From NCBI GenBank assembly GCA_041662205.1, contig JBAZSZ010000002.1, positions 27,957 through 91,956 on the forward strand: a stretch of 64,000 nucleotides of DNA. Reading direction: 5' to 3'. The position numbers and the translations under genes are program-made. Each line of letters starts with the position of its first letter. Position 1 is the stretch's first letter. The notes below the pieces were generated by a model that made no database searches, was not told where the DNA came from, and saw only the letters and a list, made by a program, of their open reading frames with translations. Below are positions 14,476-54,217 of this stretch, in pieces. The DNA is from Minisyncoccota bacterium. Lineage in GTDB: Bacteria > Patescibacteriota > Minisyncoccia > Phycocordibacterales > UBA9973.

Positions 14476-15216
14476 TTATTCTATAATCTTTTTAAACTCT
14501 TCTGGTATTGGAGATTCTATTTTTATAGTTTCACCTTTAAGATTCTTAAATTCTATAGATTTCGCGTGCAAAGCTAAGCGCGAGATGCCCTTGGGGCAAG
14601 GATTATCAGGATTATAGAGAGAATCACAAGCGACAGGGTGATTTAAGAATTTCATATGCACGCGGATCTGGTGCGTCCGGCCAGTTTTAGGTCTAACTTC
14701 AATATATGTAAAATTTCCAGACAGGAGCTTATGAAAATTTTTATCGGTGTGGGAACCCTTTAGGGAGGAACCGGAAAAATTTTCATAAGCTCCTGTTTTA
14801 AATCTTTTTAATACTCTATATTGAGTTATCGCCTCTCGCATTTCTCCACGCGCTCCACGACCAGCAGAATAACGTCGAAAGTCCTTTGGACTTCTCCCGA
14901 TAGGTTTATTTATTATCCCCCGTTCATTTTTTACATTTCCCGAAACAATAGCATGATAAATCTTTTTTATTTCTCTGTTCTTAAATTGACTCTTGAGAAA
15001 TTCATGAGCTTTTTTATTTTTAGCTATCAGCATTACACCAGAAGTTCCTTTGTCTAACCTATGCACTAATTCTGCTTTTGGATATTTTTTTACAGCCCAA
15101 TCTAAAATAGTTTTTTCCTTACTGGTTTTATCGGGGTGCACCAAAATCCCCGAAGGTTTATCTATGGCTAAAATATTAGTATCCTCATATAAAATTTTTA
15201 TTTTTTCTGGCATCAT
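14476..15216 (-). CDS. RluA-family pseudouridine synthase carrying an in-frame palindromic insertion
   Basis: HRLDKGTSGVMLIAKN has the catalytic Asp, and the C-terminal PKTGRTHQIRVH motif is present. Confidence 0.85.
   Translation of the reverse strand: MMPEKIKILYEDTNILAIDKPSGILVHPDKTSKEKTILDWAVKKYPKAELVHRLDKGTSGVMLIAKNKKAHEFLKSQFKNREIKKIYHAIVSGNVKNERGIINKPIGRSPKDFRRYSAGRGARGEMREAITQYRVLKRFKTGAYENFSGSSLKGSHTDKNFHKLLSGNFTYIEVRPKTGRTHQIRVHMKFLNHPVACDSLYNPDNPCPKGISRLALHAKSIEFKNLKGETIKIESPIPEEFKKIIE
14722..14795. repeat. 74-bp palindromic element inserted in frame in the pseudouridine synthase gene
   Basis: There are perfect 21-bp inverted repeats: caggagcttatgaaaattttt and aaaaattttcataagctcctg. 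They flank a 32-bp GC-rich core. The element encodes an extra peptide, GAYENFSGSSLKGSHTDKNFHKLL. Confidence 0.7.
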
Positions 15217-35814: not shown

Positions 35815-35843
35815 AAAATTTAAAAGAAATTAGAATTTGTTGT

Positions 35844-35919
35844 TTAGAAAGCCTTGCGACCAGCTACCGAGCCGAGCAGTTCGCTGGCGTAATAACGCCA
35901 GATAGATTGCTTTATAAAT
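35844..35919 (-). repeat. GC-rich ~75-nt intergenic element, copy 1, 16 nt 3' of rpsT; candidate structured RNA or REP-like element
   Basis: Near-identical to 37691-37764. Hairpin ctggcg-taataa-cgccag and shared termini ttagaaagccttgcg / gatagattgctttataaat. Confidence 0.5.
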
Positions 35920-35935
35920 AACAAATTCGAATTTC

Positions 35936-36199
35936 TTACTTAACTAATTTTGATAAGCGAGATTTCTTACGAGCGGCGTTATTTTTCTTTATTACTCCTT
36001 TTTGCGCTGATTTATCGATAGCCTGAAAAGCGCTTGGGAGCATCTTTTTAGCTTCAGCTTTACCTGTTTCTTTATTTGTTTTAACAACTTTCTCGATTTT
36101 CTTGATTATTTCCTTCATCACCTTCTTGCGTTGGTCATTAAAAGCCTTCTTTCGAAGAGAACCACGAATTGCTTTTTTAGCTGATTGTGTTATTGGCAT
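35936..36199 (-). CDS. rpsT: 30S ribosomal protein S20
   Basis: MPITQSAKKAIRGSLRKKAFNDQRKK resembles the S20 N-terminus. Basic and all-alpha. Confidence 0.85.
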   Translation of the reverse strand: MPITQSAKKAIRGSLRKKAFNDQRKKVMKEIIKKIEKVVKTNKETGKAEAKKMLPSAFQAIDKSAQKGVIKKNNAARKKSRLSKLVK

Positions 36200-36820: not shown

Positions 36821-37672
36821 ATGCCTGAATTACCAGAAGTAGAAACGACAGTGCGAGGTCTTAAAAAGACTATAGTGAATCTTGTAATAAAAAACGTCTG
36901 TACTGACTTAGTAACAAAAGATAAGCGTAAACATGATAGTGTAGCCAACCCTAAATTTTTCAAAATTTTTAAAAAAGAAATTCTAAACAAAAGAATTCTA
37001 TCAATAGAAAGACGTGCTAAAAATATCCTAATAAACTTATCAGGAAATAAAACCATTTTGATTCACCTGAAGATGACTGGATATTTGTTTTATGGCAAAG
37101 ATCCAAAAATAAAATTTGCCCATGTTGTTTTTACACTCTCAAATAAACATTATTTAGTTTTTTCGGATATACGTAAATTTGGGAAAATCACTTTATTTGA
37201 TACTAAAATTGCGCATGATAGTAGACACTTAAACAATATCGGGCCAGAACCTCTTGATAAAAATTTTACTTTAAAAAAATTAGAAGAATGCTTAAATAAA
37301 AAACTAAACGGAAAGATTAAAACAGTTTTAATGGATCAAAGTGTTATTGCTGGTATTGGTAATATTTATTCGGATGAAATACTTTGGCGCGCTGGCGTGC
37401 ATCCAGAAAGAAAAGTTTCCAGTTTAAAAGAAAAAGAATTTAAATTAATTTTCAAAGCCATTAAAGAAACTCTAAAAAAAGGCATAGATTTCGGTGGAGA
37501 TTCAATGTCAGACTATAAAAATATTTACGGCTTGCCCGGTAAATTCCAACTACATCATGAAGCGTACAGACGCACTGGAGAAAAATGTCGAAAGAAAAAT
37601 TGTAAAGGAATAATAATAAGAAAAATAATAAACAGCCGCAGCGCGCACTTTTGCTATGTGCATCAGAAATAA
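36821..37672 (+). CDS. mutM: Formamidopyrimidine-DNA glycosylase
   Basis: The N-terminus MPELPEVET has the catalytic Pro2. There is an H2TH motif and a C-terminal zinc finger. Confidence 0.9.
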   Translation: MPELPEVETTVRGLKKTIVNLVIKNVCTDLVTKDKRKHDSVANPKFFKIFKKEILNKRILSIERRAKNILINLSGNKTILIHLKMTGYLFYGKDPKIKFAHVVFTLSNKHYLVFSDIRKFGKITLFDTKIAHDSRHLNNIGPEPLDKNFTLKKLEECLNKKLNGKIKTVLMDQSVIAGIGNIYSDEILWRAGVHPERKVSSLKEKEFKLIFKAIKETLKKGIDFGGDSMSDYKNIYGLPGKFQLHHEAYRRTGEKCRKKNCKGIIIRKIINSRSAHFCYVHQK

Positions 37673-37690
37673 AATAAGAAAATATAAAAT

Positions 37691-37764
37691 TTAGAAAGCC
37701 TTGCGCAGCCGGGTAGGCGAGCAGTTCGCTGGCGAAGCTTCGCCAGATAGATTGCTTTATAAAT
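37691..37764 (-). repeat. GC-rich ~75-nt intergenic element, copy 2, 30 nt 3' of the TrmH-family gene
   Basis: Hairpin ctggcgaagcttcgccag. The loop and stem differ from copy 1, but pairing is preserved. Confidence 0.5.
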
Positions 37765-37794
37765 TTTTATATTTTCTTATTTTAAATACTAAAA

Positions 37795-38292: not shown

Positions 38293-39498
38293 TTATAAAA
38301 AGTTTTTATTCCGCATATTTTTGTGATACGCGATGGCAAATCTATGTGCTTCACTGTTCGCTAATAGAATTTCCCTTTTATATTTTAATCCAAAATCCCT
38401 ATCTCCCATGATGGCTTTCGGTTTATGGCGTTCATCTTTAACTACAGAAACTACAGGGATATTTATACCCATTTTTTTTAATATATTTTTTACTACATTT
38501 ATTTGCGCCACACCACCATCTACAACTATTAAATTTGGGAACATCCATTCTCTGTGAATTAACCTCCTTTCTAAAACTTCCGCCAGCGCACCAGTATCAT
38601 TTGCTTTATTCTGAGTCTTGATCTTAAATTTTCTATATTCATTCTTTGCCACTTCTCCGTCTTCTAAAACTGTCATTACCCCAACCATATTTTTACCAGC
38701 CATATGAGCTATATCATAAGATTCAATTCTAAAATTCCCCCTCTCCTTGATAAGGAGAGGGTTGGGGTGAGGTGAATTTTTTATCAACGCTACATCATTT
38801 ATGTGCTGCAAGGCGAAGAGTTGTTTTTTTAATTCTTGTGCTTTCTCAAATTCTTTCTCTTTTGCTTTTTGCATCATCAATTTTTTCAAATCCTTTACAA
38901 TATCTTTCTTTTTACCATTAAAGAAAAGTTTCAAATATTTAATATTGTCCAAATAAATTTTACTCGGAGACAATGCATCTGGAGTTAATCCAAGTTGCTT
39001 ATAAAATTCATAATTTTGTTTTTTACTAGATTTATCATCAATGAAAGGAAAAATTTTACGTAAAATTTTTAATGCCTCATGCAACTGTGTACCGCTAGTA
39101 AATGGACCGAAGATACTACCTTTGTAATTTTTTAAAACTCTGCCTCTGACTACCAATACCCTTGGTAATTTCTCTTTTGTAATACAAACATAATTAAAAC
39201 TTTTATCATCTTTTTCTTTCGTATTGTAATATGGCTGATATTTTTTTATCAGATTCGCTTCTAAAATAATTGCTTCTAAAACAGAGTCAGTGACTTCCCA
39301 TTTTATATTATCTGATTTAAAAACCATATCTAAAACAAGCGGACCTCTGGTATTTATTAAGTCCTTACTAAAATAACTCTTTATGCGATCTCGTAGAGAC
39401 GTCGCTTTACCAATATATAAAATCTTCTTATTTTTTAAAAAAAAATATACACCGGGTTTATCTGGTAATTTCAATTTTTTTAATGTACCTATTTCCAT
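38293..39498 (-). CDS. uvrC: Excinuclease ABC subunit C, short form lacking the C-terminal HhH
   Basis: GIY-YIG N-terminus (KPGVYFFLKNKKILYIGKATSLRDR), a UVR-like helix pair and the UvrC RNase-H-like endonuclease domain (LIVVDGGVAQ). Confidence 0.8.
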   Translation of the reverse strand: MEIGTLKKLKLPDKPGVYFFLKNKKILYIGKATSLRDRIKSYFSKDLINTRGPLVLDMVFKSDNIKWEVTDSVLEAIILEANLIKKYQPYYNTKEKDDKSFNYVCITKEKLPRVLVVRGRVLKNYKGSIFGPFTSGTQLHEALKILRKIFPFIDDKSSKKQNYEFYKQLGLTPDALSPSKIYLDNIKYLKLFFNGKKKDIVKDLKKLMMQKAKEKEFEKAQELKKQLFALQHINDVALIKNSPHPNPLLIKERGNFRIESYDIAHMAGKNMVGVMTVLEDGEVAKNEYRKFKIKTQNKANDTGALAEVLERRLIHREWMFPNLIVVDGGVAQINVVKNILKKMGINIPVVSVVKDERHKPKAIMGDRDFGLKYKREILLANSEAHRFAIAYHKNMRNKNFL

Positions 39499-39504
39499 AT
39501 AATT

Positions 39505-42156
39505 TTATCTTTTCAACACTCTTTTAAGATATTTTCCAGTATAACTCTTTGCATTGTTCGCTATTTCTTCAGGCGTACCTTTGGCAACAATCTTGCCTCC
39601 ATTTACTCCACCCTCTGGGCCAATGTCTATAATATAGTCGGAGCTTTTTACAATATCAAGATTATGTTCAATCAAAACGATAGTATTCCCATGAGATACT
39701 AATTTATTTAAAACTTCCAAAAGTTTTTGCACATCATCATAATGAAGCCCCACGGTCGGCTCATCTAAAAGATAAATTGTTTTTTCTAAATGCGGTCGAT
39801 AAAGCTCACTACTAATTTTTACCCGTTGCGCTTCCCCTCCAGAGAGCGTGGTAGCTGATTGTCCGAGCTCTAAATAACCAAGGCCTACATCAGATAGAGT
39901 TTGAAGCCTGTCAGAAATTGCGGGAATATCTTTAAAAAAGATTAACCCATTTTCTACAGTCATGTGTAACACTTCATAAATATTTTTTTTCTTATATTTT
40001 ACAGTAAGCGTCTCTTTGTCAAAACGTTTTCCATTACAAACATCACAAGTCACATAAACTGTGGGTAAAAAATGCATTTCAACGGCTATTTCCCCATTAC
40101 CCTCGCAAGCTTCACATCGTCCGCCTTTTACATTAAAAGAAAAACGATTCGCTTTCCAGCCTCGCAAACGAGCTTCTTCTGTAGAAGCAAAAAGGTCCCG
40201 AATGTGCGTAAAAGCACCAGTATAAGTGACAATGTTTGAGCGTGGGGTCCTGCCAATCGGCGACTGATCAATTAAAATGACTCTTGATAAATATTCAGTT
40301 CCAGAAAAAGAAGAACAATTAAATATTTTTGCCGTACGATATTTTCTTTCAAAACGGGCTTGAAGATTTTTATAAAGAATCTCATACATTAGAGAACTTT
40401 TTCCAGAACCAGAAACTCCAGTAATAGAGGTCATCACTCCGAGTGGCACTTCTACATTTAAATTATTTATATTAAAAATATTTCCGCCTACTATGCGAAG
40501 TACGCCTTTCGGATGGCGTCGCTTATTTGGAATTTCTATTCTAGTTTCATCCCGCAAGTAACTAAGCGTACGAGAATTATTCGTATTCTTTTTTGCAGTT
40601 AATAAATCTTCAAGATAACCAGAAACAATAACTTCTCCGCCGTGCACTCCAGCCTTAGGGCCGATATCCACTATAAAATCCGAAGCATAAATAGTATCTT
40701 CGTCGTGTTCTACAATTAAGATGGTATTACCAAGATCACGCAAGTTTTGAAGGGTTTTAATCAAGCGATCATTGTCTCTTTGATGAAGTCCGATAGTCGG
40801 CTCATCTAACACATAAAGCGCACCGACGAGCCTAGAGCCAAGCTGAGAAGCTAAGCGTATACGTTGCGCTTCTCCACCAGAGAGAGTGTTTGCCTTGCGA
40901 GATAATTGCAAATAATCTAAACCCACATCCAGCATAAATTGGAGCCTGGCTTCTATCTCCTTTACCACTGGCACAGATATTTCTTTCTCTTGTTCTGAAA
41001 GTTTTAAGTTTTTAAAAAAATCGTGCGCATCTTTTATGGAAAGAGAAGATAATTCTAAAATATTTACCTTCCCCGAAACCAGGTTTAGGGACTTTTGTTT
41101 TTTGCTATCTGCCCCTAAACCTGGTTTCGGGGAAATAGAAGAATACAAAAACACATTTAGCGCTTCAGGACGTAATCGCGCTCCATGACAAACTTCACAT
41201 GGTTCATCTCCCATAAAATATTTTGAACCAAGACCGTTACATTCCGGACAGGCACCATAAGGTGAATTAAAAGAAAATAATCTAGGCTCTACTTCTGGAA
41301 AAGAAAAACCATCATTCTTGCAAGCAAATTTTGATGACATTATAAACTCTTCAGCACCAATCTTTATAGCTACCAAACCATCTGATTCAAGAAGTGCCCG
41401 TTCTAGAGCTTCAGCAAGGCGCATTCTACTATTATCTTTATTATCTTCAAACTCATGTACTGCAAAATGATCAACAAGAATATCAATATTGTGAGCTTTG
41501 TTTTTTGAAAGAGTTATTTGTTCGCGAAGCTTTTTCATTACCCCATCAAGACGAATTTCTGCAAAACCTTTTCCAAGTAAATCATAAAGTAATTGATAAT
41601 ATTCGCCCTTTCGTCCGCGCACTATCGGGGAAAAAATACTTATTTCAGTTTCATCCCATTCTACTCCCATAACTTTTTTATTTTTCTTAGAATTTTTACC
41701 TAAGGTATTAATTTTTTCTAAAACAAAATTTAAAATTTCTTCGTTAGAAAGTTTTTTAATTTCCTCACCGCACAAAGGACAATGCGGGTGCCCAATGCGT
41801 GCATACATCACTCGCAGGTAATCATAGATTTCTGTAATCGTCGCCACTGTCGAGCGTGGATTGTTTGAACGAGATTTTTGGTCAATCGAAATTGCTGGTG
41901 AAAGACCTGTGATCTCATCCACGTTAGGCTTTGGCATTTGATTCAAAAATTGTCGAGCATAAGAAGAAAGAGATTCCACATATCGGCGTTGACCTTCAGC
42001 AAAAATGGTATCAAAAGCCAGAGACGATTTTCCGGAACCAGAAACCCCAGTAATGGCTATCATCTTGTTACGTGGCATTTCCAATGAAATATTCTTCAGA
42101 TTATGCGTCCGTGCCCCTTTAACTATTATTTTATCTATATTTTGTTGATTTTTCAT
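39505..42156 (-). CDS. uvrA: Excinuclease ABC subunit A
   Basis: Two ABC ATPase modules, zinc fingers ([25 protein letters not shown]) and conserved UvrA signatures throughout. Confidence 0.95.
41067..41136. repeat. ~70-bp palindromic element inserted in frame in uvrA
   Basis: Inverted repeats ttccccgaaaccaggtttaggg(ac) and (g)cccctaaacctggtttcggggaa flank a T-rich spacer. It encodes an extra [21 protein letters not shown] segment. E. coli UvrA has no such stretch after ARLRxEA. Confidence 0.65.
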
Positions 42157-42266
42157 TTAAATTTATCTATATAACAGTTAATACACCCACCAATGTTCAT
42201 AGGGGGTGTCAATGACTTTCTTTATAATATTAAGTAAGAATATTATAACACAAAATAGTAAAAATA

Positions 42267-43343
42267 CTAATTATTTTGGTATGGAGTATATTCTATTTCA
42301 AAACCAAGCTTGGCAGCTTCCGTTTTATATTTTTCTATTAAATCATCGAGTGTTTGGGTCTTTTTATAATCAGAACCTGCTCTAGTATAACTACTAATTT
42401 TATAACCAGTTTCATTTATCCCATTCATTCCCTCAATAGTTTGAATGTATTGTTTAGAAATTTTCTCAAGTTCTACCATTGCAACTTTTTCCAGCTTTTC
42501 GCCCAAGGCATGAGTCTCTGGATTTTGTTTTAAAATTTGCATAATTTTTTCCTGATGAATACCAATTGCATATTTTTTAAATAATTCTTTTTCTTCATTT
42601 GAAAAAGACTCAGTGATTTTAGTACCTATTTCAGGAATTTTTTCAATCAGTTCTTTGTATTTCTTAAACGTCTCAGTATTTTTATCACTTACTCTGTATT
42701 CCCAGACACCAGTTGCATCAAAAACTTTTCCATTTATTTTTATTTCTTTCTCTTCAAGAGAACGGAAAATCTGGGCCATGCCCTGAAAATCAACAATACT
42801 TGGTGCCATTGGGGGTGGTTGTAATTCACCTGACTGCATCTTTTTTATTTCTTCATCATCATATCCAACACTTGAATAAACAGAAATTGGATGTGTGTGA
42901 GTTAAAAATACATCTTTAATTTTTTGTTCTTCACAAAATTTTTCTATTTCTTCTAAAGGAACTACCCCATTATCTCCATTATTTTTAAAATCATTTGGTG
43001 TAAAATAGGAATCTTCATTTTCCTTACTCAAAAAAGCCTTCTCATTTTTATCTAAAAAAACAAAACCTTTTATGATTTCAGAATTTACTGGTAAATTTTC
43101 TTTATTACTTACAGTAGCGGGTGTTTCTATAGAAACAGTAGATGAAATATTCCCTCTGTTATTTTCTCCGGGTTCTTTTGCTGTACCACTCTCCACTTGT
43201 TGTCCAGCTGCCTCACCCAAAGAACCATAAGTTAATAAAGCACTAATTAGACTAGCTCTAAGAAATTTTTTTACTGTTTCTGATATGCTCAAAGAATTTT
43301 CTGGTTTTTTTATTGGTTTTATTACAGGGAATCCTTCATTCAT
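42267..43343 (-). CDS. Hypothetical secreted/membrane-anchored protein between uvrA and uvrB, with a possible JAMM-like HxHP..S..D motif
   Basis: N-terminal hydrophobic segment and a low-complexity linker. The segment FLTHTHPISVYSSVGYDDEE resembles the HxHPx5-6Sx2-3D pattern of JAMM/MPN/RadC proteins. Confidence 0.5.
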   Translation of the reverse strand: MNEGFPVIKPIKKPENSLSISETVKKFLRASLISALLTYGSLGEAAGQQVESGTAKEPGENNRGNISSTVSIETPATVSNKENLPVNSEIIKGFVFLDKNEKAFLSKENEDSYFTPNDFKNNGDNGVVPLEEIEKFCEEQKIKDVFLTHTHPISVYSSVGYDDEEIKKMQSGELQPPPMAPSIVDFQGMAQIFRSLEEKEIKINGKVFDATGVWEYRVSDKNTETFKKYKELIEKIPEIGTKITESFSNEEKELFKKYAIGIHQEKIMQILKQNPETHALGEKLEKVAMVELEKISKQYIQTIEGMNGINETGYKISSYTRAGSDYKKTQTLDDLIEKYKTEAAKLGFEIEYTPYQNN

Positions 43344-43372
43344 CTAATAAATATACCATAAATAATAAGTTA

Positions 43373-45679
43373 CTATTTCTTTTCCAATTTCAAACGAAGT
43401 ACTCCAATTTCGTCTCTTAAGATCGCCGCTGTTTCAAAATCTAACTCTTTTACCGCTTTATTCATTTCTTTTTCCTTCATTTTAATTATTTTTTCGTAAA
43501 TTAAATTACCAATTTCTTCATCAGATAAATAAGACTGTCCAAGACTGGTGTTTGGTATTTTTTTATTAATTTTTTTATCTTTTTTAAATTCTTTCGCATA
43601 AGCCCGCTTGAAAACTTCTAGATCAAGCTTGAGTTCCGCATTCACCACTTTGCCATGCTCACTCTCCATTTCTTCAGTAATGTCTTTTATCTTTTTTATA
43701 ATTGTTTTCGGAGTAATGCCATGCTTTTTGTTATAAGCAAGCTGAATGTTTCTACGACGAGCAGTTTCCTTTAGAGCATAATCCATTGCTCCCGTCATGA
43801 TATCAGCATAGAGAATAACCTTTCCCTCACTATTGCGAGCTGCGCGACCAATAGTTTGGATTAAGGATGTTTCGGATCGTAAAAATCCAGCTTTATCAGC
43901 ATCCAAAATTCCAATCAGAGCAACTTCTGGCAAATCGAGCCCTTCACGCAACAGATTAACTCCGACCAAAACATCAAATTCTCCTTTTCGAAACTGAGTC
44001 AGAATTTTAATTCTATCCATCGTCTTTATATCACTATGTAAATATTCTGCTTTTATTTTTTTATCCTTCAGATAAACAGAAAGGTCTTCTGCCATTTTTT
44101 TTGTTAGTGTTGTAGCCAACACTCTGAAACCTTTTTTAATTGTTTTTTCTGTTTCACTTATAAAGTCTTGAATTTGACCAGGGTAGTGCTCAAGATGATG
44201 CTCAGAGGAGTATTCGCTACGACCAGAAAGAACTTTCCCTTCCAAGATAGAGTGCGAACGACGGCGAGTATCATCTTGAGCGCTACCTTCAGAAACGGGA
44301 CGAACTATGGTTTCTGGATCTACCAGTCCGGTTGGGCGAATTATTTGTTCTACTATTTGTTCGCTTTCTTTTCTTTCCACATCACTCGGGGTCGCACTCG
44401 TATAAATCACTGGACCAATTCGTTCTTGAAATTCCTTATATTTAAGTGGTCTATTGTCTTTGGCTGAAGGTAAACGAAAACCATATTCGACAAGAGTGTT
44501 TTTACGTGAAGCATCACCAGCGTACATTCCATTTAATTGAGGCAAAGTAACATGCGATTCATCAATAATGGTAAGGAAATCTGGAACATACTCAGAGGAG
44601 TATTCGCTACGACCAGAAAGAACTTTCCCTTCCAAGATAGAGTGCGAACGACGGCGAGCATGTTCCTGGTTTTCTACATGGGGGAAATAAGACAACAATG
44701 TCTCTGGCGGTTCACCTTCTTCTTTTCCAGATAAATGCCTAGAATAATTTTCTATCCCATTACAATATCCAACTTCTTTTATCATCGCTAAATCATAATT
44801 TGTCCTCCTTTTTATGCGCTCAGCTTCTAAAAGTTTTCCTTCTTTTTCAAATTTCTTTAACTGCTGTGCCAATTCTTTTTTAATTTCAATAAGCGCTTTT
44901 TTCTTTTTTACATCTTCTGTAATAAAATGCTTTGCTGGAAAAATAAAAATATTTTTTTCTTCTCTAATTATGCGCGAAGAAGTTGGATCAACTTTTGTTA
45001 TTTTTGAAATGCTCCCGCCAAGCATTTCAACCTGGTACATAACACTTTCAGACACTGGCATAAATTCTACCCGAGAACCAATAGAGCGAAAAGTTCCCGG
45101 ACTGAGGTCTGCATTAGTACGTTCAAAATAAATACTAATTAATTTTTTCATTAAAGTAAGGCGATCTATTTTCATTCCTATCTCAAGTTTTAAATTAACT
45201 TTTTCATATTCTTCTGGAGAACCCAAACCATAAATACAGGAAACTGAAGCTACTATTATCACATCCCGTCTTGTTAAAAGTGCTTGGGTGGAAGCATGAC
45301 GAAGCATATCTATTTCTTTATTTATAGATGCATCTTTCTCAATATAAGTATCTGAAGCGGGCACATAAGCTTCTGGTTGATAATAATCATAATAAGAAAC
45401 AAAATAATTCACCGCGGAATCTGGAAAAAATTCTCGAAACTCTTGCGCTAGCTGAGCGGCGAGAGTTTTGTTGTGGGCGATCACTAAAGTCGGTTTATTG
45501 TACTGCGCTATCACGTTCGCCATAGTAAAAGTCTTGCCTGTGCCTGTAGCTCCTAGGAGTGTCTGCTTCTTCATCCCCTTAGACAGGCCTTGCACTAATG
45601 CTGAAATAGCCTCGGGCTGATCTCCGGCAGGCTCAAAAGGTTTATGTAATTTAAAGATACTTCCTTGATTTTTCAACAT
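43373..45679 (-). CDS. uvrB: Excinuclease ABC subunit B, with two in-frame repeat insertions
   Basis: Conserved GDQPEAI, GATGTGKTFTMAN and DESH motifs plus a C-terminal UVR domain. At 768 aa it is longer than typical UvrB (~660-670 aa). Confidence 0.95.
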   Translation of the reverse strand: MLKNQGSIFKLHKPFEPAGDQPEAISALVQGLSKGMKKQTLLGATGTGKTFTMANVIAQYNKPTLVIAHNKTLAAQLAQEFREFFPDSAVNYFVSYYDYYQPEAYVPASDTYIEKDASINKEIDMLRHASTQALLTRRDVIIVASVSCIYGLGSPEEYEKVNLKLEIGMKIDRLTLMKKLISIYFERTNADLSPGTFRSIGSRVEFMPVSESVMYQVEMLGGSISKITKVDPTSSRIIREEKNIFIFPAKHFITEDVKKKKALIEIKKELAQQLKKFEKEGKLLEAERIKRRTNYDLAMIKEVGYCNGIENYSRHLSGKEEGEPPETLLSYFPHVENQEHARRRSHSILEGKVLSGRSEYSSEYVPDFLTIIDESHVTLPQLNGMYAGDASRKNTLVEYGFRLPSAKDNRPLKYKEFQERIGPVIYTSATPSDVERKESEQIVEQIIRPTGLVDPETIVRPVSEGSAQDDTRRRSHSILEGKVLSGRSEYSSEHHLEHYPGQIQDFISETEKTIKKGFRVLATTLTKKMAEDLSVYLKDKKIKAEYLHSDIKTMDRIKILTQFRKGEFDVLVGVNLLREGLDLPEVALIGILDADKAGFLRSETSLIQTIGRAARNSEGKVILYADIMTGAMDYALKETARRRNIQLAYNKKHGITPKTIIKKIKDITEEMESEHGKVVNAELKLDLEVFKRAYAKEFKKDKKINKKIPNTSLGQSYLSDEEIGNLIYEKIIKMKEKEMNKAVKELDFETAAILRDEIGVLRLKLEKK
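44191..44278. repeat. In-frame palindromic element in uvrB, copy A
   Basis: The 68-bp core (ctcagaggagtattcgctacgaccagaaagaactttcccttccaagatagagtgcgaacgacggcgag) is identical to 44591-44658. Its flanks caagatgatg / tatcatcttg are mutually inverted. It encodes RRRSHSILEGKVLSGRSEYSSE. Confidence 0.7.
44581..44669. repeat. In-frame palindromic element in uvrB, copy B
   Basis: Same 68-bp core. Its flanks ctggaacata / catgttcctgg are mutually inverted, but they differ from the copy A flanks. Confidence 0.7.
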
Positions 45680-45722
45680 ATTTCTTATACTATCATAAGA
45701 TATTGATTTTTTAAGAAAATAT

Positions 45723-45795
45723 GCGCCCGTAGCTCAGCTGGTAGAGCAGATCCCTTTTAAGGATAAGGTCGTTGGTTCGATCCCAACCGGGCGCA
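45723..45795 (+). tRNA. tRNA-Lys (anticodon TTT)
   Basis: Acceptor GCGCCCG/CGGGCGC, anticodon stem GATCC/GGATA, loop CTTTTAA and a TTCGATC T-loop. Confidence 0.9.
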
Positions 45796-45805
45796 CAGCG
45801 TTAAA

Positions 45806-45836
45806 AAAATCTGCAGTAATGCAGATTTTTTTTGGG
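45806..45836. terminator. Bidirectional terminator after tRNA-Lys
   Basis: aaaaaaatctgcagtaatgcagatttttttt. Confidence 0.6.
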
Positions 45837-45846
45837 ATTATAAATA

Positions 45847-46212
45847 CTAAGCTTTAATTCTTTCTCTTAATATCAATGACAAATCAACTCTATCACATAT
45901 CTCCATAGCTTGGGCAGCTATTTCAAGGAGAGAATTAATATCCATCGGGTCTTCATCGATTAAACGACCCGCCTCAATAGAAATTTTGTCTAATTTTTTA
46001 ATTTTTAATTCGTCTTCTGTTGTCACCTTTTCTTTAAAAGGTACTCCAAAAACGGTATTGTTTGGATATTTATCAGAAAAACTTTTTGGTTTGCCTGGTT
46101 TTTCACTTATATGGTTGAGAAACATAAAAAACGAAATATACTCATTGGGATAATCACCCCTCATAAGTTCCGCCACACCATATCTTTTACTTTCGTAGGG
46201 TTTATTTTCCAT
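45847..46212 (-). CDS. Hypothetical protein
   Basis: 121 aa with no recognisable motif. It is the first gene of the islet next to tRNA-Lys. Confidence 0.4.
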   Translation of the reverse strand: MENKPYESKRYGVAELMRGDYPNEYISFFMFLNHISEKPGKPKSFSDKYPNNTVFGVPFKEKVTTEDELKIKKLDKISIEAGRLIDEDPMDINSLLEIAAQAMEICDRVDLSLILRERIKA

Positions 46213-46424
46213 GCCTTAATTATTAATCGATTATTGCTTACTAGATAATACCAAATTTTTTCTCCTTCTGTATAGCATTCAAAAAAAATCCTGTCGCACA
46301 AACTTTCCATATACGAACAGTCGAAGAAAATAGTTATAATGTTCTCCTGTTATTCGCACAACGTAAAGAAAAACAAAACCCCGCCTAGACGAGCTTGGGG
46401 CTTTGTCTAAAACGGGGTTGATAC

Positions 46425-46739
46425 TTAAGGCAACATTAATGCGATAGCCTTATCACATACCTCCCTACTTGTGTTAAGGATATTAATATAAAATATTTCC
46501 ATTCCTTTTGTAAAATCTTTTTTTACAGTTTCATTTAGAGGAACTAGGGGTTCCTCTTTTGAATAATCGGAAGATACAGAAATTCCAATTTTCAAAAAAC
46601 AAAAGCGGATTCCCTCGGCTGTTGCTTGGGCACTGTGTTGGCTCACAAAATCGTGGAAGCCCTTATATCCCCTGGTTCCATTTTTGTGAAGACATACAAA
46701 ATACTTTTTACCGTCATACCTGATTTCAATTCGCATCAT
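46425..46739 (-). CDS. Hypothetical protein
   Basis: 104 aa in a higher-GC context. It overlaps the plsY stop by 14 nt. Confidence 0.4.
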   Translation of the reverse strand: MMRIEIRYDGKKYFVCLHKNGTRGYKGFHDFVSQHSAQATAEGIRFCFLKIGISVSSDYSKEEPLVPLNETVKKDFTKGMEIFYINILNTSREVCDKAIALMLP

Positions 46740-47472
46740 TGATCTCCTTTTGTTCTTCAGGTTCTGTTCCCGCTCTTATACGAGCGATGTTTTCTAGGTG
46801 TAAGAATGTGATAAAAATTAATGAACTGAAACCTAGAATTTTGATCTCATATCCTCCGTCAAAGATTACCGCGAGCGAGGCAATGATTAAGCAAGCGGTT
46901 AATGAACGAACAGATGACATCCTGCAAAATCGAGCCAGCGGCATGGAGCGAAATTTTTTCCCATAAAGGGCAATCAGTACATAGCAAAGCAACGCTACGA
47001 GTGTAATTTTGGGAGCTATCACCAAGAATACTCCCAGAGATGTAGCAACTGCTTTTCCTCCGCGATGCCCCATGAGCAGATAAAAAAACGGGAACGCATG
47101 GCCTATCATAGCGAGAAAGCCAGATAGAGCAACTGCCCAGAGAGGAAAATGAAAAGCGAGTGCTCCAGCTACTACCATGGCTCCTTTTGTGGCATCTAGT
47201 AAAATTGTCAGAGCTTTACCTTTTCCTCCAACTCCAGCAACTCTCCCAACATTTGTTCCGCCAGGGCTGTGACTTCCGCATCTGAAGAGATAAAAGATGC
47301 TTACCTTTTCACCGTGTTTGCGTTTGAACCACCAAACGACAATGGGCCCCCAGAGGAACGAGCCAAGTGTATAACTCACCCACCACCACAACAAAAACAA
47401 CCCCCATGAATCAGAAATCAAACGTGAGCTTTCCATCATTACTCCTTTCGTAAGGTTATGTGCAAATTGCAC
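46726..47472 (-). CDS. plsY: Glycerol-3-phosphate acyltransferase PlsY
   Basis: GSHSPGGTNVGRVAGVGGKGKALTILLDATKG...HAFPFF are PlsY signatures. There is an N-terminal extension, and GC is higher than in the surroundings. Confidence 0.75.
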   Translation of the reverse strand: MQFAHNLTKGVMMESSRLISDSWGLFLLWWWVSYTLGSFLWGPIVVWWFKRKHGEKVSIFYLFRCGSHSPGGTNVGRVAGVGGKGKALTILLDATKGAMVVAGALAFHFPLWAVALSGFLAMIGHAFPFFYLLMGHRGGKAVATSLGVFLVIAPKITLVALLCYVLIALYGKKFRSMPLARFCRMSSVRSLTACLIIASLAVIFDGGYEIKILGFSSLIFITFLHLENIARIRAGTEPEEQKEINDAN

Positions 47473-47675
47473 GGGTTTATATATGAAAAGAACTACACCT
47501 GTTTAGCATAATCTAGCAACAATGGTGGTTTTGTCAAACATTTATTTCAAGCACACTTCGACTCATTACATTCGCTCAGTGTAAACAGAAACAATGAAAG
47601 GCAGTTCACATATTGTGCTCTGCCTTTTTTTTAATTGGGAAAACAAATTGGCTATTTGCTCCCCGTCGTGATTGT

Positions 47676-48044
47676 TTAAGATACCTGGAAACTCTCGAAC
47701 TCAGATTCGGGAGAGCTATTCTGCGTCAGCATCCTGTCGACGAAATCATCGTACTTCTTCATGAAATCGTCATAAGACATCTCCTGACAAGAAACTCCCG
47801 TCAGGTTAGTGTCTCTGCTATAGCAGGCGACGTAAATTTTTCCTGCCTTTTCGGTCCAGTCTCCGCCTTTTGCTAAGTCCTCCTCACTGTGAACATATGC
47901 CCTCTCAATACCAAGCTGGTTTGGACCTACCTTTGAACCGCGAGTGCTGTGTTTTACGAATCTTTTTCCTCTACTGAGAAAACGATTACCTTTCCCATCC
48001 ATTTGGACGACGTAACCTGCGACTAATACTGAAACTTTTGTCAT
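47676..48044 (-). CDS. Hypothetical protein
   Basis: 122 aa and soluble, in a higher-GC context. Confidence 0.4.
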   Translation of the reverse strand: MTKVSVLVAGYVVQMDGKGNRFLSRGKRFVKHSTRGSKVGPNQLGIERAYVHSEEDLAKGGDWTEKAGKIYVACYSRDTNLTGVSCQEMSYDDFMKKYDDFVDRMLTQNSSPESEFESFQVS

Positions 48045-48153
48045 TGGCGTCTCCTCTTTTTAAATTGTTTTTAGTTTCAGGAACAAATAGCCAAAAATAC
48101 TTTACTATAAAAGTACGATATTGTAAATAAATACTAGATATTCTAGGGATTAT

Positions 48154-48825
48154 TCAAAAAGCCTCAAGTAAAAACTGCTCAAAGGCAGACTCGGCATCAA
48201 TACCTTTTTTGCGGGCTTCAGGGAGAAGATAAGAAATACGAGAAGCAAAAGTTTTGAGTTGCTCGGGTGAAAATTTATTAAAATTATTTTTTAAAAGCAT
48301 ATCTTTGATTTTCCAGAAAAGCACACCAATAATTTCTTCCATAATTACTCCGGCATCCATCGCTTGTCTGAAATAAATCCAAGTATTTAATTTGTCTTTA
48401 TTCGCAAAAGCATTGGCTACTAAAAAATTATCAAATTTCTCCAACTTTACTTTTGGTAATTCAAAAATATTGAGCTGAACTTTTTTTGACCCAACTTTTT
48501 TAAAAGCATCAAGTATTGGCTTATTTAACTTCCCTTCTAAAAATATAAAAAGATTATCCGACTCAGCCATTTGTTTTAATTTATCTAAAACAAAATCTCT
48601 CGTTTCCTCATACTCAAGAATATTTTGAAAAACTACCACTGATAAAGCTGAGAAAAGACTGGCTCCGGAATAAAAGCTCTCTATTTGGATAGGATTAAAA
48701 TCATTTCTATTTATAAAAAAAATCTCCGAAGAAAGTATCCCTGCCTGTTCAGGTAGAACTTTTATGAATTTTTCATAATTTAAAATTTTATTTTTAGAGT
48801 CATCTCCAGAAAAAAGGTATAACAT
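48154..48825 (-). CDS. Possible DNA polymerase III delta subunit (HolA-like), short
   Basis: The N-terminus MLYLFSGDD resembles the HolA YLLYGED start, and the gene sits next to polA. The assignment is weak. Confidence 0.3.
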   Translation of the reverse strand: MLYLFSGDDSKNKILNYEKFIKVLPEQAGILSSEIFFINRNDFNPIQIESFYSGASLFSALSVVVFQNILEYEETRDFVLDKLKQMAESDNLFIFLEGKLNKPILDAFKKVGSKKVQLNIFELPKVKLEKFDNFLVANAFANKDKLNTWIYFRQAMDAGVIMEEIIGVLFWKIKDMLLKNNFNKFSPEQLKTFASRISYLLPEARKKGIDAESAFEQFLLEAF

Positions 48826-48846
48826 AAATATTCAACAAAAAAATGA

Positions 48847-49338
48847 TTAAAGTTTGACAGACTTTATGTACTCTAAATAAGGCTCTCCGTATTTCGCAGT
48901 TAGAATTTTTTCTTCTTTTTCTAAAAAGGCAAACTTTACTACTAAAGAAGAAATGAGCGCAAAAAAAATAACAAAAAAAGAATTCGCTATAATACCGAAT
49001 CCCACTACCATCAGAAAAATTCCAAGATTGGTTGGATTTCTAACATAATGATAAGGTCCATGGGAAAAAGATTCTTTTGTGATATTTTCATCAGGTAAAT
49101 GATGTGAAGTATATTGTGCCCAAAATATCAACGCACTACCGAATATCAAAAAAACAACACCAGCCCCTGTCAACAACGTAGAATCTGTAAAAATTTTAAT
49201 ACTAAATACTATATCTAAAAAAACAGCAAATAAAAATAAAACGAGCTGGGTAGCGTGTGAATGCGCTAAAATTTTGTGTATATTTTGTTTTTGAATACTG
49301 TCTTTATTATTGCTTTCCATATTTATACTATAACACAA
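48847..49338 (-). CDS. Isoprenylcysteine carboxyl methyltransferase / phospholipid methyltransferase family membrane protein
   Basis: GPYHYVRNPTNLGIFLMVVGFGI resembles the ICMT/PEMT motif. About four TM helices. Confidence 0.6.
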   Translation of the reverse strand: MCYSINMESNNKDSIQKQNIHKILAHSHATQLVLFLFAVFLDIVFSIKIFTDSTLLTGAGVVFLIFGSALIFWAQYTSHHLPDENITKESFSHGPYHYVRNPTNLGIFLMVVGFGIIANSFFVIFFALISSLVVKFAFLEKEEKILTAKYGEPYLEYIKSVKL

Positions 49339-49343
49339 TTATA

Positions 49344-51818
49344 TCATTTTACTTCCTGTAGATTGTCTCCAAAACCATAGTGTACTTCTAATGGAATGTC
49401 CGTTTTATAATGTAAATATGATTTTTGCAACACTCCCTCCATGGCCTCTTTTATTATTTTTTCAGCTTTTACTAATACACTTTCTTCCACTTCGTAAACT
49501 AATTCATCGTGGATTTGAAGTATTAAATGAACACTCTCTAATAAACCAGCTTCTTTCAGACCTTCTTCTGCATACCTGATAGCTAATTTAATAATGTCGG
49601 CTGCTGTTCCTTGGAGGGGGGCATTGGTCGCAGTCCGCTCTGCCATGTTTTTCAAAAATGGAATTCTGGAATTTATATTTGGGAAATTTCGGCATCTACC
49701 AAATAAAGTTTCAGTATAAGAATTTTTTAATACGAACTTTTTTACTTCTTCTAGATAATCCCGTACACCAGAAAATTGATTAAAATAATTATCATAGAAC
49801 TTTTGTGCCTCTTCGCGTGTTCCACCTAAGTTTTTTCTTAAAGCAGAAACTCCCATACCATAAATAATTCCAAAATTTATAACTTTGGCTTTACGTCGCA
49901 TTTCTTTGTCCACTTTTTCTATCGGTACACCGAAAACAAATGAAGCCACTCCCGCATGAATATCTTTTTTCTCATAAAAAACTTGGGTCATTTTTTTATC
50001 CCCTGAAAGCATTGCCGCTACCCGTAATTCAATCTGGCTATAGTCAAAAGCAACGAGCTTAAAACCTTTTGGTGCAATAAAACCACCTCGGATTCTCCTA
50101 CCAAGCTCTGTTTTAATTGGTAAATTTTGTAAATTAGGATCCTGTGAGGCAAACCTTCCCGTCGTGGTGCCATTTTGTAAAAATTTAGCATGTAAACGAT
50201 TACCAGCGTCTACCATTTTGGGTATAACATCAATATAAGTAGAGAGTAATTTTTGCAACTCTCGATAAAATAATATTTCTTTTATAATTGGATTTTCTTC
50301 TTCTAATTCTTCCAATACTGACACCTTGGTAGAAAATCCACCACTCGCATTTTTCTTTATTTTGTTTTTCCCTGGTGCTTTCATTCCCATTTTGCCAAAA
50401 AGCACTTCTCCTAATTGTTTAGGTGAATTTATATTAAATTCTGTGCCTGCTTGCTCATATATTTTTTTAGTCAAAATATCTAATTCTGTATGATATTCAA
50501 CTGACAATTTTTCAAAATATTTTTTATCTATTAAAATTCCATAATCTTCCATCTCTTTTACTATAGGAATAATAGGTTTTTCTATTTCTTCATAAACTTT
50601 TTCTAAATTATTTTCTTTTAATTTTTTGAAAATATATTCATAAGCTGTTTCAAAAGAGTTCGTGTGAGTAAAAAATAAAATATCTTCCAAATTTGGATTT
50701 GGAAGATCAGAATTAATGAGCCAGAGAGCGATACTAGCTTCTTGAAGTTTTTGTGGGTCTACGTTAGAAGAAGACTCCAGAGAATTTTTGAGCTGGTCTG
50801 GTTGAGCCCGCTCATTCAAAGAATCCTGTGCGGGCGACCCGAGGACCCGAGAAAATTCTGCTGGAGTCTTCTTCTCACCATTCTCAAAAAAATTTTTCAG
50901 CCGTGTTAATAAACTTCTAAATTCAAAAGTTGAAAAAACTTGTTCAATTTTTTTAAAATCTACACTTTCCCAAAAAGTTTTTGACGGCATTGTAAAATCT
51001 ATTGGTGTATCGGTTCTGATGGTCGCCAAAATCTTTGAAAACAAAGCTTCTTCTTCGTTGTGTTTAAGTAATTCAATCATCCTAGGACTGATGCCCGCTT
51101 TTTTAAAAATTTCTTCATCTTGTTTAATTTTTTTGTAAATTTCTTCAATAGTTCCAAATTTTGAAATTAAAATTTCAGCTGTTTTTTCACCAACTCCTTT
51201 TATGCCAATAATATTATCTGAAGGGTCTCCACGTAGGCCTTTATAGTCCGGTAAAAGTTTCGGCTTAAAATGAAACCGATTTACCATGGCATCTTCATCA
51301 TATAAAATAGTATCGTTGATTCCCTTTTTCAAAGTGTAAACCTGTACTTTTTTACCATCTACCAATTGCATAGTATCCATATCACCTGAGGCAATAATAA
51401 TTTTTATATTTTTATCTTTTTTATATTTCTCCACAATTGTTCCCAAAACATCATCCGCTTCAAAGCCAGGCGCATCATATATCGGTATGTCAAAAGCCTC
51501 AAAAATCTGACGGGAGTTTTTTAATTGAATTATTAAGGCATCCTCTGTCTTTGCTCGGCCTGCCTTGTATCCATCATGAGCTTCATGTCTAAAAGTTTTT
51601 TGGGGTAGGTCATAACAAGCCACAATATAATCTGGCTTTAATTCGGTAATTATTTTCATCAACATACTAGAAAGTCCATACAACGCTCCTGTCGGCTCAC
51701 CCGAAGATGACAGAAACTCTGGTAAGGCATGATACGCGCGGTGGATTATGGCATGGGCATCTAGTAATACTAAAGTTTTACTATTATTTATGTCACTATT
51801 TATTTTGGTTTTTGGCAT
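49344..51818 (-). CDS. polA: DNA polymerase I (5'-3' exonuclease plus polymerase; the 3'-5' exonuclease region is replaced by a linker)
   Basis: N-terminal 5'-nuclease fold, then polymerase motifs DYSQIELR (A), RRKAKVINFGIIYG (B) and QIHDELV (C). Confidence 0.95.
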   Translation of the reverse strand: MPKTKINSDINNSKTLVLLDAHAIIHRAYHALPEFLSSSGEPTGALYGLSSMLMKIITELKPDYIVACYDLPQKTFRHEAHDGYKAGRAKTEDALIIQLKNSRQIFEAFDIPIYDAPGFEADDVLGTIVEKYKKDKNIKIIIASGDMDTMQLVDGKKVQVYTLKKGINDTILYDEDAMVNRFHFKPKLLPDYKGLRGDPSDNIIGIKGVGEKTAEILISKFGTIEEIYKKIKQDEEIFKKAGISPRMIELLKHNEEEALFSKILATIRTDTPIDFTMPSKTFWESVDFKKIEQVFSTFEFRSLLTRLKNFFENGEKKTPAEFSRVLGSPAQDSLNERAQPDQLKNSLESSSNVDPQKLQEASIALWLINSDLPNPNLEDILFFTHTNSFETAYEYIFKKLKENNLEKVYEEIEKPIIPIVKEMEDYGILIDKKYFEKLSVEYHTELDILTKKIYEQAGTEFNINSPKQLGEVLFGKMGMKAPGKNKIKKNASGGFSTKVSVLEELEEENPIIKEILFYRELQKLLSTYIDVIPKMVDAGNRLHAKFLQNGTTTGRFASQDPNLQNLPIKTELGRRIRGGFIAPKGFKLVAFDYSQIELRVAAMLSGDKKMTQVFYEKKDIHAGVASFVFGVPIEKVDKEMRRKAKVINFGIIYGMGVSALRKNLGGTREEAQKFYDNYFNQFSGVRDYLEEVKKFVLKNSYTETLFGRCRNFPNINSRIPFLKNMAERTATNAPLQGTAADIIKLAIRYAEEGLKEAGLLESVHLILQIHDELVYEVEESVLVKAEKIIKEAMEGVLQKSYLHYKTDIPLEVHYGFGDNLQEVK
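50767..50875. repeat. ~109-bp palindromic element inserted in frame in the polA interdomain linker
   Basis: Arms gaagaagactccagagaatttt and aaaattctgctggagtcttcttc are inverted with one indel. The GC-rich core has a nested gcccgc/gcgggc inverted repeat. It encodes GEKKTPAEFSRVLGSPAQDSLNERAQPDQLKNSLESSS. Confidence 0.6.
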
Positions 51819-53855: not shown

Positions 53856-53890
53856 TTGTTTATGCTCCTCGTTTGTCGAAATAAAAAAAG
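53856..53890 (+). promoter_or_regulatory. Copy c of the promoter-like motif (TTGTTT-atgCTCCTCGTTTgtcga-AATAAA)
   Basis: Shares 19 contiguous nt (ttgtttatgctcctcgttt) with copy a. Confidence 0.3.
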
Positions 53891-54217
53891 CATTAATCTC
53901 TAAACAATCCTTTCAGAGCTGAGCTCCAAAAGTAATAAAATATTATAGGATAGCCCCAGAAACTAATAAAAGCTCCAAAACGTCCTATGCAAATTCATAT
54001 AACCTATGGCTGATTGCTTAGAGATTAATGCCTTATTTAAATATCAATAAAAAACTTCTAACAATATTATACTATATGCTAAAGCAAGCAAATGCTATAA
54101 TGTTGATAGCTATGTTGATACCCTGTTGATAAATGTACTACATATACAACATAGCATATAAAAAAATTAATGTCAACCCCCATCATTAGTAAATGATAGA
54201 TTTAACAAAAAACCCTT

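Follow-up and report, generated by a model that had tools for sequence, protein, structure and literature searches.

How can a highly conserved repair gene hold the same 68-bp sequence twice and still encode an intact protein? This question is raised by uvrB in a 64,000-nucleotide stretch from a Minisyncoccota bacterium (GTDB lineage Bacteria; Patescibacteriota; Minisyncoccia; Phycocordibacterales; UBA9973; assembly GCA_041662205.1, contig JBAZSZ010000002.1, positions 27,957 to 91,956), which is called the window in the following. The original prediction had seen here two in-frame palindromic mini-elements behaving like Rickettsia palindromic elements (RPEs). Here, the repeats are compared with other UvrB proteins, with further copies of the same sequence in metagenomes and with known repeat systems. 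On balance, it appears probable that the 68-bp repeats are copies of a selfish, tolerated, translated and RPE-like hairpin repeat of Paceibacterota, which would be spread and maintained via template switching and fold-back synthesis and not by a classical transposase.

Two in-frame insertions in UvrB

On the plus strand an exact 68-nucleotide repeat is found at 44201-44268 and at 44591-44658, and these are the only two copies within the window. For a match of this length 0 occurrences are expected by chance, and no shuffled sequence yielded one. Both copies are located in one intact open reading frame (ORF) of 768 amino acids (Table 1), exactly where they had been predicted. The encoded protein is 100% identical to a database entry, "excinuclease ABC subunit UvrB" from Candidatus Paceibacterota, which belongs to the Candidate Phyla Radiation (CPR). 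Across the elements the GC content amounts to 0.47-0.50 versus ~0.25-0.40 in much of uvrB, in agreement with the earlier remark that they are GC-richer than the surrounding gene.

The source is a metagenome-assembled contig, and the 68-bp identity might in principle be an artefact of the assembly. The ORF is, however, intact and in frame through both copies and the arms flanking them differ. Furthermore, assemblies of other samples (L001 from JGI, L002 from ENA, L013 and L088) carry elements at both UvrB sites. Since these assemblies are independent, the chance of an artefact is practically negligible.

Alignment to solved UvrB structures divides the window protein into the blocks 9-333, 367-463 and 500-670, and the residues 334-366 and 464-499 in between are without counterpart. 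The first segment, called site 1, comprises 33 residues and falls between residues 330 and 332 of 9gy7_E; the second one, site 2, comprises 36 residues and falls at residue 428 of the same chain. An addition of about 25–30 residues per copy had been proposed, which was right with respect to the insertion and too low with respect to its size. Site 2 is also not inside the GQIDD region, as had been assumed, and actually lies just N-terminal to YPGQIQD. Both inserts are hydrophilic and are predicted to be disordered. They fall between the aligned UvrB blocks, and in an AlphaFold2 model of only moderate quality (mean predicted local distance difference test, pLDDT, of 63.5) they appear as coil, with pLDDT values below 50 at residues 339-362 and 466-496.

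Neither segment is present in ~70 outgroup genomes, whose UvrBs were taken from a contig scan dominated by the generic motif YYDYYQPE and are mostly distant ones. The outgroups outside of the CPR read YFP(D/E/K)DFL and RPxxGQIDD without interruption, and other CPR lineages display just 6-7 extra residues at site 1 and ~5 at site 2. Homologous segments at both positions in unrelated bacteria would have contradicted the idea of insertions; among these ~70 genomes no such case was found. Together with the solved UvrBs this supports the proposal that both segments are lineage-specific.

Among the 120 closest UvrBs (77-91% identical, 697-808 amino acids) nearly all length variation is located at these two sites. 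An insert is present at site 1 in 59 and at site 2 in 50 of these 120 relatives. Many of the inserts belong to the core family of the window, with the consensus xxLRxSHSVLEGQxxSGRSEDSSE. Unrelated hairpin-coding inserts are found at the UvrB sites as well (SSFSGSLSGVAT..SSACETPRKRKL, FVNGLAGVGDPGNRGPEQK, TLGRSGDDGQRKFSAENFRGESE and PLLNKEG..HPNPLLSKERG), and trimmed forms also occur, in which the arms alone or the tail of the core alone remain. The insert states are intermixed along the host tree, even between sister sequences, which indicates that the turnover is fast.

The common empty alleles of site 1, YFPKSGFLT and YFPKTGFLT (L003:10001-12232, L116:10001-12247), contain 5-bp inverted repeats (AAATC..GATTT, TAAGA..TCTTA) which involve the FLT codons. 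In the empty allele of L003 the sequence AAATCAGGA is identical to the outer 5' arm found where the site is occupied. From the 5-bp inverted repeats it might be speculated that the YFPKTG/KSG-FLT alleles are footprints of excision or deletion, which we regard as a weak lead and not as a result.

A common core on locus-specific stems

To follow the core beyond uvrB, a frame-blind DNA pattern was derived from its conserved positions and run over metagenomes, yielding 32 loci. Together with the loci fetched earlier, 39 distinct copies are available, including a few near-duplicate assemblies (L001/L002, L084/L093). Nine copies are located at UvrB site 1 and twelve at UvrB site 2, nine in PolA, within the linker that joins the 5'-3' exonuclease domain to the polymerase domain, two in UvrC ahead of the RNase H-like domain, two in the CCA-adding enzyme and one each in UvrA and in an IleRS-type synthetase. 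The host genes of the dispersed copies were confirmed by Pfam. Three further copies are intergenic, and their contexts were checked separately. The core has no match in viral contigs, and no Rfam family was matched by it, neither at the gathering score nor at E-values up to 1. A peptide-profile search with the insert, using a doubled profile, gave 108 candidates, none of them significant, and no conclusion was drawn from it.

Each core lies at the tip of a stem of 15-23 bp which is specific for the locus, and the intergenic copies share this architecture. In the window, the arms are longer than the ~10 nt described before. The arms of copy A (site 2) comprise 19 nt with 17 of 19 Watson-Crick pairs, or 22 nt with 91% complementarity if the CTC/GAG ends are counted. 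Its 3' arm extends into the YPGQ tyrosine codon of the host, and the native codons for HYPGQ, which serve as that arm in L096, are homologous to it. For copy B (site 1) the arms amount to ~17 nt, with 13 Watson-Crick pairs and one G.T pair out of 17; here the 3' arm contains the universally conserved D-F-L codons of the host and the 5' arm is a degenerate inverted copy of it. In folding calculations, a strong hairpin is predicted for copy A, both for the RNA and for either DNA strand (z -2.6 to -5), and the predicted folding of copy B is weak. Within the core, the predicted fold contains many G.U pairs and little covariation, and beyond a TTCGC/GCGAA helix no conserved core structure is claimed.

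For 34 aligned copies, the 18 positions adjacent to the core form on average 15.3 Watson-Crick pairs, versus 7.5 when the arms are combined with mismatched partners. Arm pairs had changed on both sides in 23 of 24 cases. Cells with a double change number 243, versus 81 in shuffles, and none of 500 shuffles reached 243; the proportion of paired cells is 82% and drops to ~40% when the partner is slid. Between host positions, the arms are unrelated and only the 68-bp core plus 3-7 nt is common to the copies. These conserved ends read CTC/GAG, often with ATG/CAT, and the outer arms are locus-specific. Hence, the predicted inverted and locus-specific arms are real, but the whole palindrome is not the repeated unit, since only the core is shared.

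The origin of the arms becomes visible where they run into the host gene. At site 1 the 3' arm passes through GAT TTT TTG, encoding the universally conserved D-F-L. In L102 and L096 the 3' arm of site 2 is CAT TAT CCT GGA CAG ATT (HYPGQI), with 18 of 18 positions paired, and the 5' arms of L111 and L117 contain the host codons for VSEG and VSAS, respectively. Where the host flank is universally conserved, one arm is thus, as far as can be read from the sequences, made of native codons and the other one of their inverted copy. Where the host arm has synonymous differences, the partner arm mirrors them, as seen in L001 (CCCGACTTCC with GGAAGTCGGA) and in L013 (CCGGATTTCC with GGAAATCCGG). The orthologous stems at site 2 of the window, L001 and L003 display three compensated pair changes and none that is uncompensated in L001 and L003. 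Locus-specific stems containing host codons are a signature of fold-back copying. Among the stem mismatches, 15 are G.T and 26 are A.C; this lack of a G.U excess on the mRNA strand suggests that the pairing arose at the level of DNA rather than by selection for an mRNA structure.

These observations bear directly on a classical non-autonomous transposon, in which the whole palindrome would be mobilized by a transposase encoded elsewhere and the arms would differ owing to old divergence. The dispersal over several genes and intergenic DNA is what such an element would produce, as are the short conserved termini CTC...GAG, often with ATG/CAT, beside the core. Inner-arm motifs such as GATGATG/CATCATC are common to copies in different genes, and the uvrA-type family described below keeps its arms between uvrA and uvrB. 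Divergence alone, however, cannot give arms which are near-perfect within a copy and unrelated between loci, and the arms contain universally conserved host codons. The longest direct repeat across the outer boundaries has a mean of 3.76 nt versus 3.36 nt in mismatched controls, so that no target-site duplication beyond chance was detected. Within the 64 kb and the fetched 10-kb flanks, neither the domain scan of ten window ORFs nor the annotated domains of the flanks revealed a transposase, and the core is absent from viral contigs. A classical transposon is therefore considered unlikely.

Although the scan did not select for frame, none of the 36 in-gene copies is out of frame or interrupted by a stop codon. 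The phase in which the core is entered is common to all 36, and 29 of them are plain sense copies in one phase. The in-gene copies add ~33-36 residues, which are hydrophilic and predicted to be disordered. Two antisense copies, one at each UvrB site, have the same phase as the sense copies and are without the TAG which is present on the reverse strand of the window core. From these frame and stop-codon statistics, the copies would be translated. The same numbers speak against an intervening sequence, i.e., hairpins which are removed from the mRNA (like an intron, or by RNase III cleavage and religation) or bypassed by the ribosome. Stems as long and perfect as 21-26 bp would serve as substrates for RNase III, and introns in rRNA and tRNA genes of the CPR are known (PMC13011429). 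Nevertheless, there would be no need for such sequences to be in frame or for antisense copies to lose a stop codon; excision at the base of the stem would delete the essential host codons it holds (DFL, YPGQI), and the lack of any Rfam match argues against a group I or II intron or a ribozyme. This makes an intervening sequence highly improbable.

At the level of conservation, it is the nucleotide sequence and not the peptide that is kept, the peptide being a passenger. In columns not fixed by the search pattern, the core entropy is 0.54, 0.59 and 0.52 at codon positions 1, 2 and 3, thus without codon periodicity. Four-fold degenerate sites of the host genes are only 31-56% identical between genomes whose cores differ from the window core at few of 68 positions (2/68 for L001 site 2, ~5/68 for L101 site 1). 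In the two copies of the CCA-adding enzyme (L103:4416-4484, L115:862-930) the core is 69 nt long owing to a 1-nt indel near the apical loop, which changes both frame and peptide in the core's 3' half (..LEGQEIKESQRILLQA..); the host frame is regained after the element.

A benefit for the host could nevertheless be envisaged, with the peptide as a functional module of repair proteins or the mRNA or DNA hairpin as a regulatory signal common to polA and the nucleotide excision repair (NER) genes. Here, 33 of the 36 in-gene copies are found in uvrA, uvrB, uvrC or polA, nearly all copies use one reading frame, the core is far better conserved than host synonymous sites and changes in the stems are compensated. 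A peptide function hardly agrees with the missing codon periodicity and the tolerated frameshift, and an mRNA signal hardly agrees with the missing G.U excess and the absence of an Rfam match. Furthermore, even sister genomes show a patchy distribution of the insert, unrelated sequences take the place of the core and the intergenic copies display the same architecture. In the window uvrC, uvrA, uvrB and polA lie within ~13 kb (38293-51818), with ruvA, fpg, ruvB and ruvC close by. The enrichment in the four genes may arise from this proximity, which can by itself explain it, or from tolerant linkers between domains. A host benefit is accordingly very unlikely as the explanation.

Copies within one genome tend to resemble each other more than copies at one site of different genomes do. 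On average 6.3 core differences are observed between copies on one contig, versus 11.7 for copies from different contigs which occupy the same host site; the same-contig values are 0 for the window pair, 1 for L013, 2 for uvrB/polA of L101 and 3 for L088. In L001, the sister genome of the window, the site-2 core has 2 differences from the window core over the 68 positions, whereas its site-1 core is diverged (13 differences within L001). The identity of the two window copies, which are 390 bp apart, is thus best read as the outcome of a recent copying event or gene conversion, presumably from site 2 to site 1.

Occupied sites appear to be hit again. In several composite inserts a new element, either antisense or from another family, precedes what is left of an older core, its 3' tail (..SEDSSK, ..SEYSSK, RSEDSYEHVP). 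Nested or trimmed examples are L104:364-431 and L106:4740-4807 as well as the proteins P0028, P0038, P0111 and P0080. The junctions lie near the tip of the old hairpin, which suggests the tip as a preferred point of breakage or insertion.

This is difficult to reconcile with ancient insertions which were vertically inherited at a few sites and are immobile now, their similarity being due to conversion between copies or arms and their patchiness to repeated deletion. Such a history would fit to the homology of orthologous arms between genomes (the window, L001, L003 and L096 for site 2, most genomes for site 1), to the common deletion derivatives with only tails or arms (P0111, P0038, P0080, P0064) and to the extra loop of 6-7 amino acids which even distant CPR UvrBs have at site 1. 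It does not account for several distinct junction types at site 2 (L102/L096, window, L111, L098, L104), for antisense copies nested in older sense copies, for the same core at seven host positions plus intergenic DNA, or for unrelated families replacing each other at the same sites in close relatives. Immobile ancient insertions are hence regarded as quite unlikely.

Proposed template switching and fold-back synthesis, and known repeat systems

For the favored reading, a hairpin repeat spread and maintained via template switching and fold-back synthesis, the following sequence of events is proposed. The core would be copied to a break or a stalled fork by template switching, which results in a templated insertion. 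Its self-complementary ends would then snap back and prime the synthesis of ~20 nt on the adjoining flank, generating the locus-specific stem, after which the end would be rejoined. Later, templating from arm to arm would keep the stem paired and repair mismatches, giving rise to apparent compensatory changes. Finally, a fragile hairpin tip would allow occupied sites to be hit again, exchanged with other hairpin families or deleted.

Several points weigh against this proposal. All steps of the mechanism are inferred and none was observed, and the orders core-then-arms and hairpin-then-core both stand; a clean pair of alleles before and after a fresh insertion was not found. In polA, and past the TAC codon at site 2 of the window, the arms are untraceable to host sequence, and the arms of the uvrA-type family seem to travel with the element. 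The near-exclusive use of a single frame and the concentration in NER genes and polA (33/36) are explained just by assumed tolerance and proximity. Selection for a function could equally fit the strong conservation of the core together with the three compensated stem changes. Furthermore, this conservation is in part apparent, as it is inflated by the retrieval of the copies with a fixed DNA pattern.

A broader version is put forward more tentatively and would not be called probable at present. Here, the Paceibacterota would harbor a guild of transposase-free hairpin cores, which propagate via replication and break repair and each build their stem from the host flank. The hairpins would act as fragile landing pads, which are re-hit, exchanged, inverted and trimmed. 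If true, this guild would continuously supply highly conserved proteins of repair and translation with new disordered linkers, throughout the lineage.

Among the known systems, the RPEs are the closest by description. They are 105-146 bp long and have terminal inverted repeats of ~12 bp within their consensus (Ogata et al., 2000, 2002; summarised in PMC2229807), and the RPE insert in gmk has been shown to be translated (PMC2229807). Common to both are short hairpin repeats in a small AT-rich genome, the in-frame location in conserved housekeeping genes as well as in intergenic DNA, and the coexistence of several families. As for RPEs, the insertions occur without loss of the ORF (36/36), and three intergenic copies are present. 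The predicted RPE-like behavior holds as a description: the elements are in frame, form hairpins, are tolerated in conserved proteins and fall into several families. In contrast to the RPEs, whose whole palindrome of 105-146 bp is repeated, only the 68-bp core is shared here and the 15-23-bp stem is locus-specific and partly derived from the host, so that a consensus including own terminal inverted repeats does not exist. Moreover, the host belongs to the Paceibacterota, and the insertions recur at the same few sites, where families are exchanged.

The bacterial MITEs (miniature inverted-repeat transposable elements), such as Correia, ERIC, RUP and Nezha, are likewise small, have the potential to form stem-loops and are occasionally fused in frame to genes. 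Three features define them, namely terminal inverted repeats which are conserved, a direct duplication of the target site and a transposase as partner, and the first two are absent here. Without conserved terminal repeats and target-site duplication, the elements are by definition neither RPEs nor MITEs. Repetitive extragenic palindromic (REP) sequences and REPINs with their REP-associated tyrosine transposases (RAYTs) resemble them as hairpin-forming palindromic repeats which are homogenized within a genome. REPs, however, comprise 20-40 bp, are extragenic and possess a conserved GTAG/CGTC tag, whereas the copies described here are mostly intragenic and their arms are without a conserved tetranucleotide tag.

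The ribosome skips the so-called byp elements, for which an in-frame position is not required, in contrast to the copies described here, which within genes are always in frame and stop-free. Together with the mitochondrial GC clusters and the repetitive hairpin-forming elements (PMC2800124), they share with the present case that GC-richer hairpins invade AT-rich reduced genomes, coding regions included. Self-splicing introns, ribozymes and rRNA intervening sequences are set apart by a catalytic or intron RNA structure, for which no Rfam match was obtained, and the copies are constrained with respect to frame and stop codons.

With regard to the mechanism, fold-back inverted duplications of ~5-34 bp and templated insertions at breaks have been described in yeast (PMC11724301), and template switching creates and maintains hairpins (PMC8794818). 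The likeness lies in the inverted copy of sequence adjacent to the junction, in the range of 5-34 bp, in the creation in one step and in the seemingly "compensatory" upkeep of the stem. A native arm with its inverted copy is seen at UvrB site 1 (DFL), at site 2 of L102/L096, in L111 and L117 and in a pseudouridine synthase of the window. Nevertheless, those events are sporadic mutations of local sequence, whereas here a specific conserved core is repeatedly present at the tip of the hairpin and spreads from one locus or genome to another.

Full-text literature on CPR, Patescibacteria and Parcubacteria was searched for palindromic, MITE, hairpin or in-frame elements and no description was found, in line with the earlier claim that in-frame palindromic elements of this lineage are undescribed. 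New features of these protein-coding palindromic repeats outside of the Rickettsiales are a stem templated by the host and shared hot spots. Such repeats have been considered peculiar to Rickettsia and Wolbachia; their occurrence in the CPR, where they span many genomes and several families and re-use hot spots, shows this behavior to be a recurrent outcome in small AT-rich genomes. The stems with host codons represent a readable trace of how an insertion is made and kept, by which the long-open question of their movement becomes testable. On the practical side, the inserts inflate and diversify conserved marker proteins of the CPR, can mislead alignments, phylogenies and structure predictions, and the intragenic repeats arising from them can confuse assembly.

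Further hairpins in the window

The coordinates of the uvrB elements and of the other hairpins in the window are given in Table 1. Similar elements had been predicted in uvrA, polA and the pseudouridine synthase. The same in-frame hairpin behavior is found in all three, with cores which differ from that of the uvrB elements.

Table 1. Positions of the elements and their host gene in the window (arm and core sequences in gene sense).
Feature	Position	Strand	Description
uvrB ORF, intact, 768 aa	43373..45679	-	houses both 68-bp elements
Insertion at site 1, codons 334-366, 33 residues	44582..44680	-	between residues 330 and 332 of 9gy7_E
Insertion at site 2, codons 464-499, 36 residues	44183..44290	-	at residue 428 of 9gy7_E
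Core copy A (protein site 2), 68 bp	44201..44268	-	(A)RRRSHSILEGKVLSGRSEYSSE
Core copy B (protein site 1), 68 bp	44591..44658	-	identical to copy A
Copy A 3' arm	44182..44200	-	CATCATCTTGAGCACTACC, codes HHLEHY; extends into host Tyr codon of YPGQ
Copy A 5' arm	44269..44287	-	GGTAGCGCTCAAGATGATA, codes GSAQDD; inverse complement of 3' arm, 17/19 Watson-Crick pairs
Copy B 3' arm	44574..44590	-	TATGTTCCAGATTTCCT, codes YVPDFL; contains universally conserved host D-F-L codons
Copy B 5' arm	44659..44675	-	AGAAAACCAGGAACATG, codes ENQEH; degenerate inverted copy of 3' arm
polA hairpin	50763..50878	-	27-nt arms, different 62-nt GC-rich core, in frame, peptide EFSRVLGSPAQDSLNERAQPDQL
uvrA hairpin	41069..41134	-	22/22 perfect arms, 22-nt spacer, in frame; other family
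PseudoU_synth_2 (pseudouridine synthase) hairpin	14710..14807	-	33-nt arms, 85% complementary; 32-nt GC-rich core
Intergenic two-copy family	35824-35937, 37670-37784		flanking the ruvA-fpg gene pair; ~70-nt core, 21-23-nt locus-specific inverted arms

The polA hairpin of the window sits in the linker between the exonuclease and polymerase domains, where at least 8 other genomes have the uvrB-type core. A peptide related to it is found at UvrB site 1 of P0028. In the pseudouridine synthase, the insert amounts to 25 amino acids in comparison to PDB entry 11wx_A; the native codons for KRFKTGAY make up the 5' arm, and an inverted copy of them forms the 3' arm. The uvrA-type peptide of the window occurs again at UvrB site 1 of P0073. 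At the place of the uvrA hairpin, L001 and L003 have another small insert, SDLKGSRGPTS, and the uvrA peptide of the L001 type is present again at UvrB site 2 of P0101 and P0113. Based on a HMMER alignment to solved UvrA, the 3' arm of the uvrA hairpin had been taken for native sequence; this was withdrawn, since the comparison with L001 and L003 shows that the whole hairpin is an insert.

The intergenic two-copy family matches the architecture of the uvrB elements, with a shared core and locus-specific arms. Its core reads TAGAAAGCCTTGCG...GAGCAGTTCGCTGGCG-loop-CGCCAGATAGATTGCTTTATA, and the inner loop is TAATAA in one and AAGCTT in the other copy. A stretch at 53882-54039, between the gene of a type II/IV secretion ATPase and ruvB, contains 28-nt inverted arms (89% complementary) around 102 nt and may be a further element of the same architecture. 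In ruvC, a 28-nt near-perfect palindrome, ACCCCGTCACTCATGAGCGACGGGGT, is located at 55310-55357 and codes for DPVTHERRGE near the N-terminus of RuvC; it may represent a hairpin insert of small size, located in frame within a beta-hairpin loop.

Two observations concern other parts of the window. The ORF 28024-30027 (667 amino acids) contains tandem repeats of ~245 bp at 28390-29119, which are 79-99% identical and unrelated to the hairpin elements. In uvrA (39505-42156), ~127 residues of the solved UvrA 9gxk_A (chain residues 305-432) are replaced by ~34, and this CPR UvrA thus seems to be without most of what follows the first zinc module.

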